A DNA stretch of 64,000 nt from an uncultured Holophagales bacterium (GCA_963842525.1 CAWJGT010000009.1:512001-576000), one strand, 5' to 3'; shown: positions 11,216-24,181, numbered from the stretch's first letter. Notes: a model not told the origin generated them from the letters alone. Made by a program: numbers and translations.

Positions 11216-11219
<4 letters not shown>
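10815..11219 (+). CDS. PaaI-family hotdog thioesterase
   Basis: [13 protein letters not shown] and VRFLKPV. Confidence 0.88.
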
Positions 11220-12964
<1,745 letters not shown>

Positions 12965-12979
12965 GGAAAGCCCGCTTCG

Positions 12980-13400
12980 CGGCCGGAGCAAGAGCGAAAC
13001 ACCAGGCAGCCGGCACCCTGGCCGGGCCGTCCGTCGCCCCGAGCACGATCCGCAGCACCAGCACGGCCGCGACGGAGAGGAGGACCGCTTTCGGATAGGG
13101 AGTCGTCGGCGCGATGTCGAGCAGCGCGAAGAAGACCACGACGAACGCCGGATGAGCAGCGTATCGAGCCCTGTGAAGTGGATCGCCAGCCGGCGGGTAC
13201 CGAGGAGTGCGACGGCGACGAGCGCTGTCACGATCAGGGTCGTGAGGCTGGTGGAGAACAGGAGCTTCGCCCAGAGAGCGGCAAAGAGAGAAGCAGCGGC
13301 CAGCCATCCGGCCCACGGGGCGGAGCCCCGGGCGGCGAACCGTACGGCGAGTGGGCGGGCGCAGAGCGCGCCGATCCCCGGGAGCGTTGGCGTTGACGAC
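12980..13400 (-). pseudogene. Frameshifted membrane-protein fragment
   Basis: Hydrophobic stretches in two minus-strand frames (WAGWLAAASLFAALWAKLL; AFVVVFFALLD); no start. Confidence 0.35.
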
Positions 13401-13842
13401 GCTCCAGGCATCGCCGCGCAGCCGGCCCGGCATGCCGTTGACGATGCGGGCGGTGAAGCGGCAGGTGCCGCCGGTGGACGGGATTTTTGATCGCAGCCTT
13501 CGCCGAGGTAGACACGGACGGGCAGCGACTTGAGCCGCACGTCGCCGGCGTCGTAGTGCTGGTCCTCGGCCGCTGCTGGTGTCTTTCCCTCCCGGAGCGC
13601 CGTTTCGGCAACTCGTTACCTGGGTCGTGCTCGCCGGCCAAACGACCTCGACCTGCAAGGCCTCAGTCCAAATCGTAGATGGTGACTTCCATGCTGATCG
13701 GCAAGCCGGAGCCAGAACTGTGGTCAAGGTTATGCGCAGTTCCGGGCGGGAGACTTTCGGCTGTAGGAATTCCGGTTTGTAACCTTCCTCTTCGTCCCTG
13801 GATTAATCTTCTATAGAGGGAGAAGATGAAAGGGCCGAGACC

Positions 13843-14490
13843 ATGAGCGAGCCGGAAATAGGACGGCTCGACCCGCAGGTGATCCTGGGTAGGCCGGGGT
13901 TGTCCTGGACGCCGACGGAGGTCGAGGTCATCTGCGATTGGTTGTTTGAGCCATCCCGCTATCGGCAATTCCTGCATTGGGGGGTACGCTTTCTCGGGCA
14001 GTACGCCGTCGCCGAGGACGCCGAGGATGCACTCTCCGAGTTCCTACAGAGCAGGCTGAAGGGAATCATCCGGAAGTTCGATCCTTCCAGGTTGTCCTTC
14101 TCAGGCTATCTCCTGGTCTGCTTCCGTCAGTTTTGCTCGCGTGCTCGCGTCCGCTTGGAGAAACGGGAAACGCGGCGGGCTCCTGGCCTCTGGCTTGTGC
14201 GGGAAGAGGAGCAGCAGACCATCGAGAACAGCCCGGAGCTCATCGTCGACAGTCGATTCGATCTCCACAGGAGTCTCGAAGACAAAGAGCAGGCGGAGGC
14301 GATCCGGCGCGCCCTTAAGGTACTCCCGCCCCAGTATTCGAGCGTGGTCGTCCTCCACCATTTCCAGGGCAAAAGTACAGCCGAAATCGCCCGGGAACTC
14401 GGGATTTCCGAGACAAACGCAAAGGTGAGACTGTTCCGCGCCCGGCATATGCTCTCGGAACGGATTCATGGCGAGGGTAAGAAAAAATGA
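13843..14490 (+). CDS. ECF-type RNA polymerase sigma factor
   Basis: Region 2 DAEDALSEF...FDPSRLSFSGYL; region 4 LPPQYSSVVVL..FQGKSTAEIARELGISETNAKVRLFRAR. Confidence 0.9.
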   Translation: MSEPEIGRLDPQVILGRPGLSWTPTEVEVICDWLFEPSRYRQFLHWGVRFLGQYAVAEDAEDALSEFLQSRLKGIIRKFDPSRLSFSGYLLVCFRQFCSRARVRLEKRETRRAPGLWLVREEEQQTIENSPELIVDSRFDLHRSLEDKEQAEAIRRALKVLPPQYSSVVVLHHFQGKSTAEIARELGISETNAKVRLFRARHMLSERIHGEGKKK

Positions 14491-16115
14491 ACGCCAGAAA
14501 CACAAAAAAGCATCTTCCGGACCTGCTGGCGGGCCTTCGCCTGTCGCCCCTGGAGAGGGTGGGGGATCATCTGACCGCCGAAGAGTTCGTCGGCTTCATG
14601 TTGGTCGAGGAGCACATTGCCACCTGCCCGAACTGCGCCGAGGAGGTGGAACAACTGACTGAGGCGGCAGAGGTGTGGCGGACTCCGGAGGCGGATAGCC
14701 GTCGCCTTGAGTTGCGCGACCGGATCAAGGAATCCTTGGCGGCGCAGCACGGCGGCCGGTATGGGGCAATCTTCCGTCCGGTCCGCCCGGAGCCAAGCCC
14801 CGATCCGGGACGTAGCACCAAAGAGTTCGGGACGTGGACAGAGCGCCCGGTCCCCTCCACTCGCCGGGCAGGACCGTTTCGCGTGTCCGCCAAGCCTGTG
14901 GTAGCCATCGATATCGGCTCCTCCAAGGTGGCGGTTCTCATCGGCCAGGTCGACAGCCGGGGAGATCTGGAGATCATCGGTAGGGGCCTAGCACCCAACC
15001 GGGGCACCCGGAAGGGGAACATCGTCAACGTCGAAGCGACCGTTGAGGCCCTCAAGGCGGCAGTCGAGGAGGCCGAAGTGATGGCCGGTGTTGAGATTTT
15101 TCGCGCCTATGTCGGGATAGCTGGTGCCGATGTCCGGAGTGTCAACTCGAAGGGCATGGTCTCCGTCGCCCGGAGCGACCAAGAGATCACCCGGGAGGAC
15201 ATCCTGCGGGTTCTCGACACGGCGAAGTCGGCTGCATTGCCGTCCGACCGCGAGATCCTCCACGTCGTGCCGCAGGAGTTTATCGTCGACGAGCAGGGCG
15301 GCATCGACGACCCGCTCGGCATGCTCGGCACGCGCCTCGAGGTCATGGTCCATCTCGTGACCGGCAACATCACTCGGTCGCGGACGCTCCTGACCTGCGT
15401 CAACCGGGCCGGCATCGAAGTCGTCGAGATGGTTTTCGAGCCGCTCGCCACGGCCGAGGCCGTGCTCACCCAGGACGAGCGCGAGCTCGGCGCCCTGCTG
15501 GTCGACGTCGGCGCTGGCACCACTGAATACGCCCTCTTCTCGAAGGGGGAGATCCAGTACAGCGGCGTGGCGCCGATCGGCGCCGGCCATTTCACCAACG
15601 ATCTGGCCATGGTGCTGCGCACGCCGTTCGCCGAGGCCGAGCGCATCAAGACCAAGCAGGGATGCTGCCTGCCGAGCATGGTCACCAACGACGAGGGGAT
15701 CGCGGTGCCGACTGTGGCGGGTAGCACATCGCGGATCGTCCCCAAGCGCGAGCTGTGCGAGATCCTGCAGCCGCGCGCCGAGGAACTGTTCAGCCTCCTA
15801 CGCGAGGACCTGCTCAAGCACTCGCCCGACGAGGACTTGCGCGGCGGCGTCGTGCTCACCGGCGGCGGCGCACAGCTCGATGGCCTGCTCGAACTCGCCG
15901 AGCAGATCTTCGACGCGGGCGTGCGCTACGGGCTGCCGCGCGGCCTGGGGGGACTGGTTGACGTGATCAGCAGCCCCTCCTGGTCGGCGGCCTCGGGACT
16001 GCTCCTCTATGCCCTCATCGCCGAGGAAGTGCAGCCACGGCCGCGGCAGAAGTCCGGGTTCGGCGTGCGCGGATTCGTGTCTTTTCTGCGAGGTATTTTC
16101 TCCGGGCTGCTGTAA
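14487..16115 (+). CDS. ftsA: Zinc anti-sigma (zf-HC2/ZAS-like) domain fused to full-length FtsA
   Basis: N-terminal EEHIATCPNC; then AIDIGSSK, VDVGAGTT, GVVLTGGGA and amphipathic tail FVSFLRGIFSGLL. Confidence 0.9.
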   Translation: MNARNTKKHLPDLLAGLRLSPLERVGDHLTAEEFVGFMLVEEHIATCPNCAEEVEQLTEAAEVWRTPEADSRRLELRDRIKESLAAQHGGRYGAIFRPVRPEPSPDPGRSTKEFGTWTERPVPSTRRAGPFRVSAKPVVAIDIGSSKVAVLIGQVDSRGDLEIIGRGLAPNRGTRKGNIVNVEATVEALKAAVEEAEVMAGVEIFRAYVGIAGADVRSVNSKGMVSVARSDQEITREDILRVLDTAKSAALPSDREILHVVPQEFIVDEQGGIDDPLGMLGTRLEVMVHLVTGNITRSRTLLTCVNRAGIEVVEMVFEPLATAEAVLTQDERELGALLVDVGAGTTEYALFSKGEIQYSGVAPIGAGHFTNDLAMVLRTPFAEAERIKTKQGCCLPSMVTNDEGIAVPTVAGSTSRIVPKRELCEILQPRAEELFSLLREDLLKHSPDEDLRGGVVLTGGGAQLDGLLELAEQIFDAGVRYGLPRGLGGLVDVISSPSWSAASGLLLYALIAEEVQPRPRQKSGFGVRGFVSFLRGIFSGLL

Positions 16116-16151
16116 GGACGGGAGCTGACTAGAAGCCGTGAGGTTAGGACC

Positions 16152-17420
16152 ATGATCCTGTTCGATGAAGACAGAACTCCTGAGGCAGTGGGGCCTGAGA
16201 GGCCGTGCGCCCCACAGGCGGAGGGCTCAGTTGTTCACATCAAGGTTATAGGCGTCGGGGGGGGGGGTGGCAACGCGGTTAATCGCATGATTGACGCCCG
16301 GCTCCGCGGAGTCGAGTTCATTGCCATCAACACCGACCTGCAGGCGCTGAACAAATGCCGGGCACCGGTGAAGCTCCCGATCGGCAAGTTGCTCACCAAA
16401 GGTCTCGGAGCTGGCGCTGACCCCGAGATTGGACGCAAGGCGGTCCTGGAGGATACTGAGGAAATCCTCAAGGTACTCGAAGGAGCGGATATGGTCTTCC
16501 TCACGGCTGGCCTGGGCGGCGGCACCGGCACGGGCGCAGTACCGATCATCGCCTCCCTGGCGGCCGAGGTCGGAGCGCTGACCGTGGCGGTGGTCACCAA
16601 ACCCTTCGGCTTCGAGGGCCGGCGCCGCATGCAATTGGCCGAGTGCGGGATCGAGGATCTGCGCAATTCGGTCGATACGCTGATCGCCATCCCCAACGAG
16701 CGCCTGCTCAACTTCGTCGAAAGGGGCACGCCGCTTTCCGAAGCCTTCCGCATCGCCGACGACGTACTGCGCCAAGCGGTGCAGGGCATCGGCGACCTGA
16801 TCACCATCCCGGGCGAGGTCAACGTCGATTTTGCGGACGTGCGGACGATCATGACCGGCATGGGCATGGCGCTGATGGGCACGGGCTTCGCGAAGGGCGA
16901 GCATCGGGCGATCGAGGCGGCGCAGCGGGCGATCTCCTCACCGCTGCTCGAAGAGACTTCGATCCAGGGCGCCAAGGGTGTGCTGATCAACATCTCCGGA
17001 GGCCTCGACCTGACGCTGCACGAAGTGGCCGAGGCGGCGCGCATCATCGCCGACGCGGTCGATCCGGATGCCAACATCATCTCAGGCATGGTGATCGATC
17101 CGCAGCTCGAAGAGACGATGAAGGTGACCGTCATCGCGACCGGCTTCGAACGCAGCCTCGACGTCGTCCGGCCATTGCCACCAGTGGTGAGCGTCCCGCG
17201 TTCGCTCTCCGCGCAGCCGGCCTACAACGCCCCATCGCCGGCCCCGGCGCTCGCCGCAGCCGCCGAGAGGGAGGAACCCGAGCGTTCGGCCGCGGACGTG
17301 CCGTTCTACCGCAAGGCCATCGCGCACCTGCGAGGGGACGACCCAAACGGCTTCGGCCCTAACTGGTTGAACGTGGACGACTACGATATTCCGACCGTGC
17401 TGAGGAAGCAGATGGATTGA
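16152..17420 (+). CDS. ftsZ: Cell division protein FtsZ, probably a second copy outside the dcw cluster
   Basis: [31 protein letters not shown]7 loop, C-terminal [11 protein letters not shown]. Confidence 0.96.
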
Positions 17421-17920
17421 TGGAGAAGATTGTGAATCGAGGTCGCCATCCGATGCTCCAACTCGAGCTTACTGACTCCTCGGCATCCGCTGCTAACCAA
17501 CCCCGCTGTCGAGGGAAGCAGTACGCCGCGGACTTCTTCATCTGTCACGCTTACGAGGACTGCGACTTCGCCGAGCTCCTCAAGATGAAGATCGAGGAGA
17601 GAGGCTACACGGCTTGGGTCGACACCGAAAGGCTCCGAGCCGGCAAGGATTGGCGGAGTGAGATCGACGAGGGAATCAGGGGTTGCTGTGCACTGATCGT
17701 GATTATGAGCCCAAATGCCAGGAAGTCGGAGTACGTGACCTATGAATGGGCCTTTGCATGGGGAGTGGGAGTCAAGGTGATTCCGATAGTGCTCAAGCCG
17801 ACGCCTCTGCATCCACGGCTTGAGGCGCTGCAGTATTTAGACTTCACAAACCGGGCGGGCCGGCCCTGGTCACGGCTCCTCGAAATGCTTGATGACGAGG
17901 CCCGGCAGGTGATTGGATAG
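17420..17920 (+). CDS. TIR-domain protein
   Basis: FFICHAYED, WVD, W..EIDEGI, SPNARKSEYVTYEW with catalytic-position Glu; TGATG overlap with ftsZ. Confidence 0.88.
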   Translation: MEKIVNRGRHPMLQLELTDSSASAANQPRCRGKQYAADFFICHAYEDCDFAELLKMKIEERGYTAWVDTERLRAGKDWRSEIDEGIRGCCALIVIMSPNARKSEYVTYEWAFAWGVGVKVIPIVLKPTPLHPRLEALQYLDFTNRAGRPWSRLLEMLDDEARQVIG

Positions 17921-18071
17921 CTGGAACCTTCAGGTCCGGCCTCCACGGCTCAGGAGAGTGCGCGGGAGGACGCGAAAGATCGCTGCGGAGGAAACGGGTA
18001 CGGAGGCGGGCACCTCTTCCATGAACGACGCCGGGAGGCATTTGGCTTTAGGCAAGTCGTGCCCGCCTCAC

Positions 18072-18254
18072 CTACCGCTTCTGATCGCCCCGGTCCCCTT
18101 GGCCCTTCGGAACCGTCGTCTTCGCTTTCTTTTTCCGATTCTGGCTGAGAGATTTGCCGACGTCGACCACTTCGGCGAACTGGCCTTTCTCGTTGCGCCG
18201 GACGTAGCGCTTGTCCGTTCCCGTGTCGATGAGCTCGCGCTTGGATGCTGCCAT
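18072..18254 (-). CDS. Small basic conserved-looking hypothetical protein
   Basis: RELIDTGTDKRYVRR..KGQF...VDVG.SL...GQGDRGD; AGGAG RBS. Confidence 0.7.
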   Translation of the reverse strand: MAASKRELIDTGTDKRYVRRNEKGQFAEVVDVGKSLSQNRKKKAKTTVPKGQGDRGDQKR

Positions 18255-18277
18255 GAGGTCTCCTTTCGGTCTTTATT

Positions 18278-18851
18278 TTATGCCGCCTTGTGGCTCAGGA
18301 GGCAGAGGGCATGGCCCTCGAGCTCTTCGGCGCGGTGGGTGGCGGTGTGCTCGCGCAGGACCCTGGCGCGGGCCCTCTGGCCGAGGGCGCGACGCTCGGG
18401 CTCTGGGATGTCCCGCAGGTAGCACAGGACGTCACCGGCGTGGCGCACGGTGAGGATCTCCTCGCCGATCTTGCAAAAGGAGCCGAGGCCCGGCCAGGAG
18501 TCGGAGAGGATCGGCGTTCCGCAGGCCGCGGCCTCGAAGAGCCGCACGCTTGGCAACCAGCCGGCCGCGATCATGTCGGCCCGCGTCATGGTCAAGCTGA
18601 AGCGCTGGGCGTTGTAGAAGCGCCGGTGTTTGGCGGGCGCCAAGTGCTGGAACCGCTTGACGCTCTTCGGCCAACGGATCGCCTTCGGATATTGTGGACC
18701 GGCCACCACGAAGCGCCCTTCGCTCCAGCGGCGCGCCGGCTCCACCAGCAGCCGGTCCAGCGGTCGGCTGGCGGTCGTCGCTGTAGGTGCCCATGTAGCC
18801 GAGGTCCCAGCGGTGCTCCACCTCTTCCGGATAGTAGGGGTCGGGATCGAG
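18278..18851 (-). pseudogene. CgeB-like glycosyltransferase 3' fragment
   Basis: DLGYMGTYSDDRQP, AGPQYP, PSVRLFEAAACG; frameshift near 18765; 5' end cut by the repeat. Confidence 0.75.
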
Positions 18852-19798
18852 CAAGCGGAAGGAAGCGCTGCGCGAGGCCGACCTGGTCCTCCTCGCGGGC
18901 ATCCCGAGCGACTTCCGCCTCGACTATGGCCGCCAGGTCGGCCGCAAGACCGAGCTGATCTCGGTCAACCGCAGCGAAGAAGACCTGCGGAAGAACCGCA
19001 AGCCGGACCTCGCCGTCCATGCCGATCCCGCCCTCTTCCTGCGCGGCCTCGCCGTGGAGCTCGGTGCAGAGAAAGGCGAGCGCTGGAAGGAGTGGCTCGG
19101 GGACCTGCGCACCCGCGACCTGCAGCGCGAGCGGGAGATCGGCCAGCAGGCCCAAGTCGCCCCGGAGGCCCCGGAGACCACGGAGACCCCGGAGAGCCCG
19201 GAGAGCCCGGAAGACACCGAGCTGGTCAACCCCATCCACCTCTGCCGCGAGATCGACCGCCTGCTCGCGCCGGACAGCGTCCTGGTGGCCGACGGCGGCG
19301 ACTTCGTGGCCACCGCCGCCTACACCGTGAGCCCGCGCAAACCCCTCTCCTGGCTCGACCCGGGCGTCTTCGGCACCCTGGGGGTCGGCGGCGGCTTCGC
19401 CCTGGGCGCCAAGCTCTGCCGGCCCGAGGCGGACGTCTGGATCCTCTACGGCGACGGCTCCGTGGCCTACAGCCTGGCCGAGCTCGACTCCTTCGCCCGC
19501 CACGGCGTCCCCGTCCTGGCGGTCGTCGGCAACGACGCCGCCTGGATGCAGATCGCCCGCGAGCAGATCGAGATCTTCAAGGACGACGTCGGCGTCGTCC
19601 TCGCCCGCACCGACTACCACAAGGTCGCAGAGGGCTACGGCGGCCGGGGCCTGGTGGTGACCCGGAACGCCGACGTCCGCGCCGTCCTCGAAGAGGCCCT
19701 CGCCCTCGTCCGCGCCGGCCACCCGATGCTGGTCAACGCCCACCTCGCAAAGACCGAGTTCCGCAAGGGCTCGATCTCGATGTAAGGAAAGCCCGCTT
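18852..19798 (+). pseudogene. Right repeat copy: 3' half of the TPP-enzyme gene with a 36 bp longer repetitive linker
   Basis: Near-identical to 12067-12977; VAPEAPETTETPESPESPEDT replaces TGTETLEDT. Confidence 0.93.
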
Positions 19799-20256
19799 TG
19801 CGCGCGCCGCGAAAGCCTTGGGGCAGTCATTGCCCTTCGGACGTGTGCCGCAGGACCCTGACAGTTTCGAGACGGACCTGGCCAGCAAAAGGCGACGTCT
19901 CTCCAATCAATTTGGCGCTCTGCCCAATGTGCCGCCGAACGATCCAGTCTTGCCGCCAAGTGGTGGCAGACCATTGCGGCATACCTGGAGCTAGTTAGAG
20001 AATTGGATTTGAAGCCTCAAAACGGGTATGATATGCCGCGAACAGTCGGCAAGCTCTCCCGAGTTTGGACGGGCCATGCCGCCTATTGCAGGAGACTCGC
20101 GGCAAATTGACCGGGAGTGGCACTCTCCAGTCCGGCAGTCGATACCTGCCTGGGTCTGGAAGACGGACGCTGGACCGGACCGCCCAGTAGCTGGCGCAAA
20201 GTCGCAGCCGGAGAGCCGCGAGTCGCCGCTCGTTGTTCGGGACAGGAGGAGGGTTG

Positions 20257-20763
20257 ATGCGAGCCAACCGATCCATTGCCGACCTTGTAGCCCGATTGGA
20301 GGCCCAGGCCGCCTTCCATCGGGAGCGGGAGGCCCTTCATGCCAAGCAGGAAGACCTGCACCGGCAGCAGCGCACCCACCACGCTGCCGAGCTCGAGCAG
20401 ATCGCCGTACGCCTGGACGCCTTCCGGTCCGCCTCCGCCGCCGTCCTGGAGCTCGCCGACCGGATCGTGCCTCCCGACCCTGGAGAAGACGGCGAGGACT
20501 TCGGCCCCGCCTACCGTCCCCGGCTCGGCCGGATGGTCAAGAGAGTGATCGAAGGCCTAGGCGAAACCGGCCGCTTCGGCCCCGCCTGGGTCACCAGCGA
20601 GATCAACCGCCGCTTCGGCCAGGGCCTCCGCAAACCCGTCAAGGCCCGCCAGATCTCGGTCGTCCTCCGCCGCATGCACCGCTACGGCCGCATCCACCTC
20701 GTCCGCGAGGGCCGCCCGCACCACGAGGCGCTGTACAGCCGGACGGCGGGTGGGGCGCGTTGA
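20257..20763 (+). CDS. Hypothetical coiled-coil plus winged-helix-like protein
   Basis: AGGAGG RBS; helical N-terminus, basic C-terminus. Confidence 0.65.
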   Translation: MRANRSIADLVARLEAQAAFHREREALHAKQEDLHRQQRTHHAAELEQIAVRLDAFRSASAAVLELADRIVPPDPGEDGEDFGPAYRPRLGRMVKRVIEGLGETGRFGPAWVTSEINRRFGQGLRKPVKARQISVVLRRMHRYGRIHLVREGRPHHEALYSRTAGGAR

Positions 20764-20837
20764 CTCTGTAGAATAGGGGCCATGATTCCCCGATTCTCGT
20801 GGAATCTTCTTGACCCGACCCAGCGAGGCGACACCCC

Positions 20838-21050
20838 ATGAGCGCGAAGCCCCGAACCGCCACCCTGGAAACGGAAGTGCCTGCCCACCTGCTCGGCCAG
20901 ATGAAGTCGCTCGTAGAGTCTGGATGGTTCCGGGACCTCGACGAGATTGTCGTGCATGCCTTGCGGCGTTTTCTGGATTCCCACCGCAGTGACCTGATGG
21001 AGGAGCTCATCCGGGAGGACGTGGAGTGGGGCCTCCATGGAGCCGATTGA
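20838..21050 (+). CDS. RHH/CopG-like antitoxin
   Basis: LVESGWFRDLDEIV..ALRRFL; overlaps downstream PIN gene. Confidence 0.75.
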   Translation: MSAKPRTATLETEVPAHLLGQMKSLVESGWFRDLDEIVVHALRRFLDSHRSDLMEELIREDVEWGLHGAD

Positions 21051-23198: not shown

Positions 23199-24181
23199 AT
23201 GCTCAAGATCCTGATCTCGGGTGGGTTCAACGAAGAAGACAAGAAGTCCCTCGACGCCGTGCAGACGTTTGCGCGGCACCTGGGGGAGCAGGTCGTGCGC
23301 AGGGGGCACACCCTGTTGAGCGGCTGCCGGACGAGCCTGGATGCAGTGGTGGCGGAAGGGGCCGGCGCGGCTGCCGAGGACCTGAAGCTGGAGCCGGAGA
23401 CCCGGCTCATCAGCTATGTGATGGCCGGAGAGCAGCAGGCGTTCGGCCGCGGCAGCGTCCTCATGTCGCGGCTGAGCGATTGGGAAGCGGGAGCCCGCGC
23501 CTGCGCGTTCCGGAGCCGATCGAACAAGCGGACGCGGTCATCCTCCTCGGCGGCTTCAAGGGGACCCACCGCGCCGCGAACTGGGCCCGGATCGCCAGGA
23601 AGCCGATCCTGCCCATCCCGCGCTTCGGCGGCGCCGCGAAGGACATCTATCACGAAGAGCTCGACTCGTTCCGGGCCTCGCATCTCGAACAGAGCGACTT
23701 CGAATCGCTCTCGGAGATGACCCCCGATCTCGAAAAGCTGGCAGGCCGGATCATCAGCCTGGCCGAGAAGGCCTGCATCTCCAGCAATGTTTTCGTGATG
23801 ATGTCCTTTTCGGAAGAGCCGGCCCTGGCGGATGCTCTCGAGTCGTTCCAGACGGTCTGCGACCGCTTCGGTTATCGGTGTCGCCGGATCGACGAGGAGA
23901 ACGATGTCGAACGGATCCTGCCGGAGATGCTGTCGCGCATCCGAAACTGCGCCTTCGTCATCGCCGATCTGAGCGAGCCGAGGCCGAACGTCTACTATGA
24001 GCTCGGCTACGCGGAGGGACAGGGCAAGCCGCTGATCGTCACGGCGAAGAAGGACACTGTGCTGCCCTTCGACACCAAGGACATCCCGGTGATCTTCTGG
24101 GAGAACCAGAAGGGACTCAAGGACAAGCTCGCCAAAAGGGTGGCCCACATCGCGGCCCGGCAGGGGCGGTCGGCTGCCTGA
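23199..24181 (+). CDS. SLOG/LOG-like domain fused to nucleoside 2-deoxyribosyltransferase-like domain, frameshift near 23485
   Basis: ADAVILLGGFKGT...PILPIPRFGGAA; VFVMMSF...VIADLSEPRPNVYYELGYA. Confidence 0.75.

Follow-up and report, generated by a model that had tools for sequence, protein, structure and literature searches.

We describe a four-gene locus in a 64,000-nucleotide stretch of DNA from an uncultured Holophagales bacterium (G000:C9:512001-576000; this whole stretch is called the window), which lies within a 1.98-Mb contig of a 9.95-Mb genome. At positions 13843-17920 of the window, four intact open reading frames (ORFs) on the plus strand encode an extracytoplasmic function (ECF) sigma factor, a fusion of a zinc-binding anti-sigma (ZAS) domain to the division protein FtsA (ZAS::FtsA), the division protein FtsZ, and a TIR-domain protein. 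The locus is real, intact, and under selection, and its architecture is one that we have not found described. The reading that we favor, tentatively, is that of a selected, horizontally moved cassette in which an ECF sigma/anti-sigma switch would be gated by a private FtsA/FtsZ polymer, with the TIR protein as the effector. A role in defense is possible, with circumstantial support.

A tightly coupled operon with an extra, selected FtsA-FtsZ pair

The original prediction, made from the sequence of the window, had described four co-directional and tightly coupled genes, and all four ORFs are as stated. The sigma gene overlaps the gene for the ZAS::FtsA fusion (P0002, 542 aa; 14487-16115) by 4 nt (ATGA), the fusion gene is separated from ftsZ by 36 nt, and the ATG of the TIR gene at 17420 uses the A of the ftsZ stop codon (TGATG); an alternative TIR start, TTG, lies at 17417. 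In the fusion, 137 extra N-terminal residues precede an FtsA that matches TIGR01174 over residues 138-508 with 423.1 bits (cut-off 175.85) and includes the SHS2_FTSA insert (1e-30), and FtsZ matches TIGR00065 with 429.3 bits (cut-off 295.2). The nucleotide-binding motifs, the FtsA membrane helix, and the FtsZ C-terminal peptide, all said to be kept, can each be located in the proteins. In FtsA, these are DIGSSKV (142-148), DVGAGTTE (340-347), LTGGGAQL (457-464), and the C-terminal amphipathic tail (524-542); in FtsZ, they are the GTP-binding signature and T7-loop motifs at 34-44, 120-129, and 224-230 and the C-terminal peptide at 410-422.

The genome holds exactly two full matches each for FtsZ and FtsA. 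The other ftsA-ftsZ pair, on contig C25, ends a complete division and cell wall (dcw) cluster in the order ftsI, murE, murF, mraY, murD, ftsW, murG, murC, ftsQ, ftsA, ftsZ; the canonical pair for which the original prediction had advised a search is therefore present, and the pair in the window is an extra one, which rules out the possibility that it is the only copy in the genome. The window pair is not adjacent to ftsQ or to mur or ddl genes, as had been noted; its neighbors are aldehyde dehydrogenase, TPR, thiamine pyrophosphate (TPP)-enzyme, and beta-lactamase-family genes. Compared with the dcw copies, the window proteins are 86% (FtsA) and 84% (FtsZ) identical, and the DNA homology to C25 runs from position 14907 (about FtsA codon 141) to exactly the ftsZ stop at 17420, with 84% identity over 2537 columns. 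Nonsynonymous (dN) and synonymous (dS) divergence between the window and dcw copies, computed by the Nei-Gojobori method, gives a dN/dS of 0.15 for ftsZ (dN 0.095, dS 0.639) and of 0.21 for ftsA (dN 0.082, dS 0.386). The extra pair is under purifying selection, and neutral decay, which had been raised as a possible refutation, is ruled out by these ratios together with the conservation of the TIR domain described below.

The extra pair is also mosaic in its divergence. A DNA tree of ftsA and ftsZ with 14 rows groups the window pair as sister to the dcw copy of the same cell (100/100), on a branch of 0.19 vs 0.058, i.e., 3.3 times longer. Trees of separate segments differ: ftsA columns 376-1000 give a short branch (0.056) sister to the dcw copy (100/99), and the branches from ftsA columns 1-330 and from ftsZ columns 76-450 are long (0.41 and 0.31, respectively) and unplaced. 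The G+C content at third codon positions (GC3) is 0.70-0.78 in the sigma gene (0.74), the ZAS part, the TIR gene, and the 5' parts of ftsA and ftsZ, and about 0.9 in the central tracts of the window ftsA and ftsZ; it is 0.94 in the dcw ftsA, 0.89 in the dcw ftsZ, and 0.89-0.95 in two native neighbors. When tracts were set by GC3 and third-position differences to the dcw copy were then counted, the low-GC3 tracts differed more than the central ones, both in ftsA (30/87, 0.34, vs 68/317, 0.21; p 0.016) and in ftsZ (59/125, 0.47, vs 56/174, 0.32; p 0.011), a contrast that was absent from the control pair of G004 and dcw copies (p 0.26 and 0.79). We read these patterns as the likely trace of an older cassette, foreign in composition, in which gene conversion from the resident genes replaced parts of ftsA and ftsZ; support for such conversion is moderate because GC3 and third-position differences are not fully independent. 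A recent simple duplication as the whole story is weakened by the mosaic divergence, by GC3, and by the older ZAS::FtsA fusions described in the next section.

An anti-sigma domain borne by FtsA

The first protein of the operon (P0001) is an ECF sigma factor by its match to TIGR02937 (73.8 bits, cut-off 42.9), with a strong region 4 (Sigma70_r4_2, 1.9e-17) and a weak region 2 (17.6 bits, under the Pfam cut-off of 24). It has no close relative among the 60 related genomes, where the best match reaches 35% identity, and no close paralog within its own genome.

The N-terminal domain of the FtsA fusion is helical and carries a HxxxCxxC zinc motif (HIATCPNC, residues 43-50), as ZAS domains do; NF052375 scores only 19.3 bits on P0002 (cut-off 100). 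A word-based search with residues 1-137 returned the protein itself as its sole match, and an exhaustive profile search was needed to find homologs, of which there are 42 at E <= 0.001. The two top matches, P0245 (528 aa, 3.4e-19) and P0246 (524 aa, 2.7e-11), were recovered from separate metagenome sources (contigs of 4588 and 1962 bp) and are also ZAS::FtsA fusions; all four of the shorter matches (80-280 aa) that were scanned are zf-HC2 anti-sigma factors (P0247-P0249, P0251). An alignment of the N-termini of the three fusions shows H28, H43, C47, C50, and an RLEL helix to be invariant. In their FtsA bodies, P0245 and P0246 share 63.5% and 54.4% identity with the window FtsA; these bodies stand at equal distance from housekeeping FtsAs and take long branches (0.89 and 2.17) without a resolved position in a quick FtsA protein tree. 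By homology, the ZAS::FtsA architecture recurs in two further proteins, and the FtsA N-terminus is best described as a ZAS-like anti-sigma domain.

This domain is predicted to bind region 2 of the sigma factor encoded just upstream. A complex model of the sigma factor with FtsA residues 1-137 scored 0.76, a mark attained by 51 of 78 solved complexes and by 2 of 108 mismatched pairs, and the best of three controls scored 0.00; at least 41% of contacts agree between runs, and the partner has a predicted local distance difference test (pLDDT) value of at least 52. That the N-terminal ZAS domain acts on the adjacent sigma factor is a prediction favored by the invariant motif, the zf-HC2 homologs, and the complex model.

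A genome of the same family (G637) carries an ordinary pair of a sigma factor and a 369-aa zf-HC2 anti-sigma factor (L067:764-2484; G637:C251), whose genes overlap by 4 nt in the same manner as the ATGA overlap in the window. The two proteins are distant relatives of the window's sigma factor, to which that of G637 is 27% identical, and of the FtsA N-terminus, and the C-terminal part of the anti-sigma factor has no clear domain; the pair may represent an unfused ancestral form. Metagenomes scanned with alignment A1 gave five weak anti-sigma loci, none with FtsA, and genome contigs scanned with the sigma factor gave one weak match; scans of viral sequences with alignment A1 and with the sigma factor gave none.

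A truncated but conserved TIR protein

The TIR protein (P0004) matches TIR_2 with an E-value of 1.2e-24. Its closest relatives, the 120 listed of 459 matches, are 50-70% identical and 294-404 aa long, and in all seven homologs tested, the window protein aligns to the C-terminal half (residues ~136-311, comprising the linker and the second TIR), with 52-66% identity to the second TIR. One of these relatives, P0130, has two TIR_2 stretches, and the window protein, with its single TIR, differs in this from the tandem-TIR family of ~300 aa (P0125-P0244). Since the match is to the C-terminal half only, the window gene is a second TIR that has been detached from the tandem and now begins at the stop codon of ftsZ. 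The gene is therefore an intact ORF that overlaps the ftsZ stop, as first reported, and at the same time a truncated derivative of a tandem-TIR gene, and does not represent a complete ancestral gene.

Truncation has left the domain itself in order. Of the 53 columns with conservation of at least 90% among 120 homologs, it agrees at 51, and 30% of the homologs mismatch at no fewer positions. In the AbTIR chains 7uxr, 7uwg, and 8g83, the residue aligned with E110 is the Glu of YEL, the catalytic one. The TIR domain is conserved, not degenerate, and is predicted by this Glu to be of the NADase type. It has no close relative in the 60 related genomes (at most 35% identity) and no close paralog in its own genome, where a tblastn search gave 25 further weak matches (23-33% identity) on 11 contigs; the genome is therefore rich in TIR-domain genes. 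Several of the relatives carry tandem-TIR open frames of 300-360 aa.

A phage contig from IMG/VR (L069, 9213 bp, with portal, terminase, and prohead protease genes) encodes at 1782-2516 a 244-aa protein with a single N-terminal TIR that is 56% identical to that of the window. The adjacent gene encodes the prohead protease, fused to a 2'-5' RNA ligase-like domain. The existence of a phage-borne single TIR argues that this TIR clade is mobile and works outside the tandem form.

Distribution of the operon and an independent link between TIR and FtsZ

The operon as a whole is known so far from this genome alone: the same four-gene neighborhood, for which the original prediction had proposed a search, was found in none of the genomes covered, namely 60 relatives and overlapping sets of 300 genomes of the order, 401 of the class, and 401 of the phylum, with 9-13 first-look candidates scored per genome. 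Of 61 genomes (the window's own and its 60 relatives), three have another full FtsZ that scores above the cut-off, namely G000, G003, and G038.

In G003, of the same genus, a lone FtsZ of 405 aa stands without FtsA (L010:8445-9662; G003:C329) and is 70% identical to that of the window; it is fast-evolving (tree branch 1.35), and its gene and that of a GmrSD-type restriction endonuclease (L010:6277-8118, minus strand) are arranged head to head. Two short fragments of the FtsZ C-terminal domain (75 and 43 bits) are present in G009, of the same family (G009:C185:22948-24767), a few kb from the housekeeping ftsZ.

The extra FtsZ of G038, of the same order, is a TIR-FtsZ fusion of 496 aa (L011:8410-9900; G038:C15), encoded by a solitary gene with a sulfatase gene on one side and an unknown gene on the other; fusions of this kind, 496-499 aa long, are also seen in P0012 and P0287. 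Among the 120 proteins listed of 471 matches to the family of its N-terminal TIR, for which domain lists were precomputed, the TIR is fused to FtsZ in two (P0005, P0012), to DnaB_C-type ATPases in six, and to DnaA domains in four, two of which have the N-terminal, AAA+, and C-terminal domains of DnaA. The TIR-DnaB_C and TIR-DnaA proteins are P0011, P0013-P0016, P0060, P0029, P0048, P0058, and P0099, some of them recorded as Thermoanaerobaculia. P0005 and P0012 share 57% identity from end to end. Neither has the tail, both retain the GTP motifs and the Glu of the TIR, and their identity to housekeeping FtsZ is 45-48%. A phylum-wide scan with the TIR-FtsZ fusion gave no further fusion among the 150 matches listed of 405, all 150 being ordinary FtsZ. 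These fusions suggest that selection has brought TIR and FtsZ-type polymers together more than once in the phylum, independently of the operon described here, and that the pairing is not a chance one. More generally, TIR may tend to be joined to paralogs of essential cell-cycle proteins.

The insert and its genomic setting

The operon sits in a repeat-bounded insert, as had been proposed, the boundaries being the two copies of a direct repeat given in Table 1 with the other features.

Table 1. Features of the insert and of the four-gene operon, in window coordinates.
Feature	Coordinates	Strand	Evidence
Left direct-repeat copy, the 3' part of an intact TPP-enzyme gene (11216-12964)	12067-12981	+	blastn; Pfam TPP_enzyme_N/M/C
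Insert leader, ~860 bp, no recognizable gene, lower G+C just upstream of the sigma gene	12982-13842		no Pfam match
ECF-type sigma factor P0001, 215 aa	13843-14490	+	TIGR02937, Sigma70_r4_2
Putative ZAS-like anti-sigma domain with Pro-rich linker (FtsA fusion residues 1-137)	14487-14897	+	HxxxCxxC, zf-HC2 homologs, complex model
Body of the FtsA paralog, including ATP motifs and the amphipathic membrane helix at the C-terminus	14898-16115	+	TIGR01174
FtsZ paralog P0003, 422 aa, with GTP-binding motifs, T7 loop, and C-terminal peptide	16152-17420	+	TIGR00065
Single-domain TIR protein P0004, 167 aa, conserved Glu at residue 110	17420-17920	+	TIR_2
G+C-rich hairpin downstream of the TIR gene, possibly the end of the operon	18003-18069	+	inverted repeat, 23-nt arms, 78% complementary; inference only
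Glycosyltransferase fragment, C-terminal domain only, 155-aa ORF	18278-18745	-	Glyco_trans_1_2 2.2e-32, nearly the full ORF
Right direct-repeat copy, a partial second copy of the TPP-enzyme 3' part	18852-19802	+	TPP_enzyme_C 2.7e-28

By blastn, the two repeat copies are 92.5% identical over the first 335 bp and 99% identical over the last 607 bp, and they comprise 915 bp of the 3' end of the TPP gene. The right copy is open in frame for 311 codons and differs from the first in length by 36 nt. The leader has three ORFs, 12912-13727 (minus), 13152-13490 (plus), and 13234-13641 (minus), none with a Pfam match, and a DNA search found no other copy of it in the genome. The hairpin that follows the TIR gene went uncalled by a terminator scan because it lacks a subsequent run of T. 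No tRNA was detected in the window, no Rfam family in 12000-21000, and no integrase or transposase domain among the ORFs scanned in or beside the insert.

The TPP-enzyme gene is single-copy in all five genus relatives, and upstream synteny with the genus relatives stops at its stop codon, with nothing in common downstream; since the synteny ends there, an empty site in the relatives is not definable. From the coordinates, the 5' part of the glycosyltransferase gene would be missing where the right repeat starts at 18852. This fragment and the partial TPP copy mark a recent rearrangement at the synteny break. The two repeats resemble each other much more closely than the two ftsAZ copies do, and the cassette therefore predates its arrival at this site. 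A possible route would be a single crossover with a circular molecule bearing a TPP 3' end from a close relative.

Further along the window, at 23480-24181, an ORF of 233 aa has a weak, below-cut-off match (25.5 bits) to a nucleoside 2-deoxyribosyltransferase-like domain, a fold frequent in nucleotide-targeting effectors.

Comparison with known systems

The original prediction knew of no described system with this architecture, and neither the papers searched nor PADLOC contain one that combines sigma factor, ZAS::FtsA, FtsZ, and TIR. We also found no paper that joins a TIR domain and FtsZ in Acidobacteria or in an anti-phage system of this kind, nor one on an anti-sigma/FtsA fusion. The main texts of the ECF classification (PMC7826278) and of a survey of anti-sigma factors (PMC7406223) hold no mention of FtsA or FtsZ, although their supplements might list such context.

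The first two genes resemble pairs of an ECF sigma factor and a class I ZAS factor, such as SigR-RsrA and SigE-ChrR, in their 4-nt overlap, in the helical N-terminal HxxxCxxC domain modelled against sigma region 2, and in their zf-HC2 homologs. They differ in that the domain is followed by a complete FtsA, and not by a transmembrane helix with an outside sensor or by a short soluble tail. The middle genes share families, gene order, motifs, and 84-86% identity with the dcw ftsA-ftsZ pair of the same cell, but they have no ftsQ or mur genes beside them, carry the N-terminal fusion, evolve on a faster branch, and lie in the repeat-bounded insert. During sporulation in Bacillus, SpoIIE and FtsZ control sigma F, so that a sigma regulator is tethered to the division ring and transcription follows the state of the septum; the concept is alike, but the proteins there, a phosphatase and a partner-switching cascade, are unrelated to an anti-sigma domain fused to FtsA.

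FtsZ paralogs have been described in Hyphomicrobiales, where a truncated FtsZ1 tunes or blocks division (PMC13732431). FtsZ1 is, like the window FtsZ, a lineage-restricted second copy kept by selection beside the essential one, but it consists of truncated GTPase domains without FtsA, sigma factor, or TIR, whereas the window FtsZ is full length and has its own FtsA. Rare FtsZ/tubulin domains also occur in other, predicted NTP-dependent conflict systems (Kaur et al. 2020, PMC7159879); these are built on MoxR-vWA or paired GTPases, components absent from this locus, and no sigma/anti-sigma::FtsA module appears in the text consulted.

The TIR protein shares the TIR_2 fold and the conserved Glu with Thoeris ThsB, SPARTA TIR-APAZ, and AbTIR-type NADases, but its partners are FtsZ, FtsA, and a sigma factor in place of the ThsA, APAZ, Argonaute, or SAVED partners of anti-phage TIR systems. 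Its best PADLOC models are Aga_TIR (9e-17, SPARTA-type) and PDC-S66 (3e-15), with weak ThsB matches, and ThsB_TIR of Pfam scores 26.8 bits. A Thoeris locus is not indicated, the scanned ORFs of the insert and of the DNA flanking it having no SIR2, Macro, or SLOG domain. Nor is SPARTA, as Aga_TIR matches in its TIR part only (6-135 of 430) to a protein of 167 aa, and no Argonaute-type domain occurs among the neighboring ORFs scanned. No PADLOC model matches the sigma factor or FtsZ, and FtsA gives only a short actin-fold match (PDC-M61B).

A proposed mechanism and the alternatives

Anti-sigma factors normally sense the envelope or the redox state. In the reading that we favor, the FtsA body would take the place of the usual transmembrane and sensor part of such a factor, and the cassette FtsA would hold the sigma factor at the membrane on polymers of the FtsA and FtsZ paralogs, by way of its retained amphipathic helix and the FtsZ C-terminal peptide. 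A change in this polymer would then release the sigma factor; such a change could come about when stress or a phage product blocks or disturbs the assembly of FtsZ/FtsA. Once released, the sigma factor would drive its own operon and so produce more of the cassette FtsA and FtsZ along with the co-translated TIR enzyme, and the output would be division arrest, NAD+ consumption, or both.

Several observations weigh against a regulated cassette of this kind. A sigma-70 scan gave one weak internal site and found no promoter for the operon; the operon recurs in none of the 60 relatives, and the ZAS profile retrieved no other fusion from the order, class, and phylum sets. The Pfam zf-HC2 profile has no match to the N-terminus of the FtsA fusion at E <= 0.01. 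In the complex model, the contacts join sigma residues 24-76 to FtsA residues 57-88, i.e., sigma region 2 only, and because sigma/anti-sigma complexes have already been solved, the pass of the model shows likeness, not binding. The evidence for gene conversion is modest (p ~0.01-0.02), the TIR gene is the cut-off half of a tandem-TIR gene, and this cut, taken with the glycosyltransferase and TPP fragments, makes it possible that the arrangement is partly a scar of rearrangement.

The alternatives differ from one another mainly over the trigger, which could be phage attack, division stress, or redox. The possible, if doubtful, alternative that comes nearest is an auxiliary module for division or its arrest with no role in conflict, in which the extra FtsA and FtsZ, under a program of stress or development controlled by the sigma factor, would enter the housekeeping Z-ring or poison it and the TIR would be a passenger left by the rearrangement. 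Both proteins could enter the normal ring, since the FtsZ C-terminal peptide and the FtsA membrane helix are kept, and the Hyphomicrobiales paralogs set a precedent for tuning or blocking division (PMC13732431); the housekeeping and metabolic neighbors and the truncated TIR gene fit as well. A passenger, however, would hardly be expected to keep its catalytic Glu and nearly all conserved columns or to start on the ftsZ stop, the TIR-FtsZ fusions elsewhere suggest that the pairing is not chance, and the foreign composition and very patchy distribution would be unusual for a developmental gene set. Phage attack is the trigger in a decoy immune sensor, which we think unlikely: the FtsA and FtsZ copies would bait phage proteins that attack the ring, the anti-sigma domain would free the sigma factor, the FtsZ polymer would gather the TIR, and depletion of NAD+ would abort infection. 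The fusions of TIR with FtsZ, DnaA, and DnaB-type proteins may be single-chain versions of such a device, with paralogs of essential cell-cycle proteins as immune receptors. The neighbors of the insert, being housekeeping or metabolic genes, lend no support to a defense island.

Quite unlikely, in our estimate, is a redox- or zinc-sensing ZAS switch in which thiol oxidation would free the sigma factor, in the manner of soluble ZAS proteins, and FtsA would serve as a membrane or septum address only, the state of the polymer not being the signal. The invariance of H28, H43, C47, and C50 in all three fusions speaks for it, as does the over-representation of zinc motifs in soluble anti-sigma domains, which the survey authors tie to redox sensing (PMC7406223); it leaves unexplained, however, both the selection that maintains, beside the fusion, a private FtsZ whose FtsA-binding peptide is intact and the retention of ATP motifs in the FtsA body. 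Less probable again is that the whole is a scar, a duplicated ftsA-ftsZ pair having landed between an anti-sigma gene and a tandem-TIR gene to give chimeric, unconnected genes. Both junctions do cut earlier genes (the anti-sigma gene after ~137 codons, the tandem TIR in its linker), the insert holds the further gene fragments, and the complete arrangement is confined to one genome. Against this stand the two additional ZAS::FtsA fusions with a homologous N-terminus in independent metagenomes, purifying selection across a dS of 0.39-0.64, and frames that are all intact and tightly coupled, with a conserved TIR. The flanking repeats, finally, being near-identical, could in principle have produced an assembly artifact, either a dcw copy chimerically joined to unrelated DNA or a mis-join at the 607-bp stretch of 99% identity. 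This we consider very improbable indeed, as the ftsAZ copies, 84% identical in DNA, are too distant to collapse or cross-join, the locus lies inside the 1.98-Mb contig with upstream synteny to genus relatives, and the same fusion architecture is found in the independent metagenomes.

Implications

If the switch that we favor is correct, an FtsA-based anti-sigma factor would couple transcription directly to the cytoskeleton of division, a link that we have not found in print. The locus may also serve, with moderate support, as an example of gene conversion keeping a functional paralog near its essential parent. Should the TIR protein be the output, this would be among the first bacterial cases in which a spare copy of an essential housekeeping protein is used as a sensor; the integrated decoys of plant NLR receptors (nucleotide-binding proteins with leucine-rich repeats) follow the same sensor logic. 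The TIR-FtsZ, TIR-DnaA, and TIR-DnaB fusions suggest that this principle may extend more widely in the Acidobacteriota.

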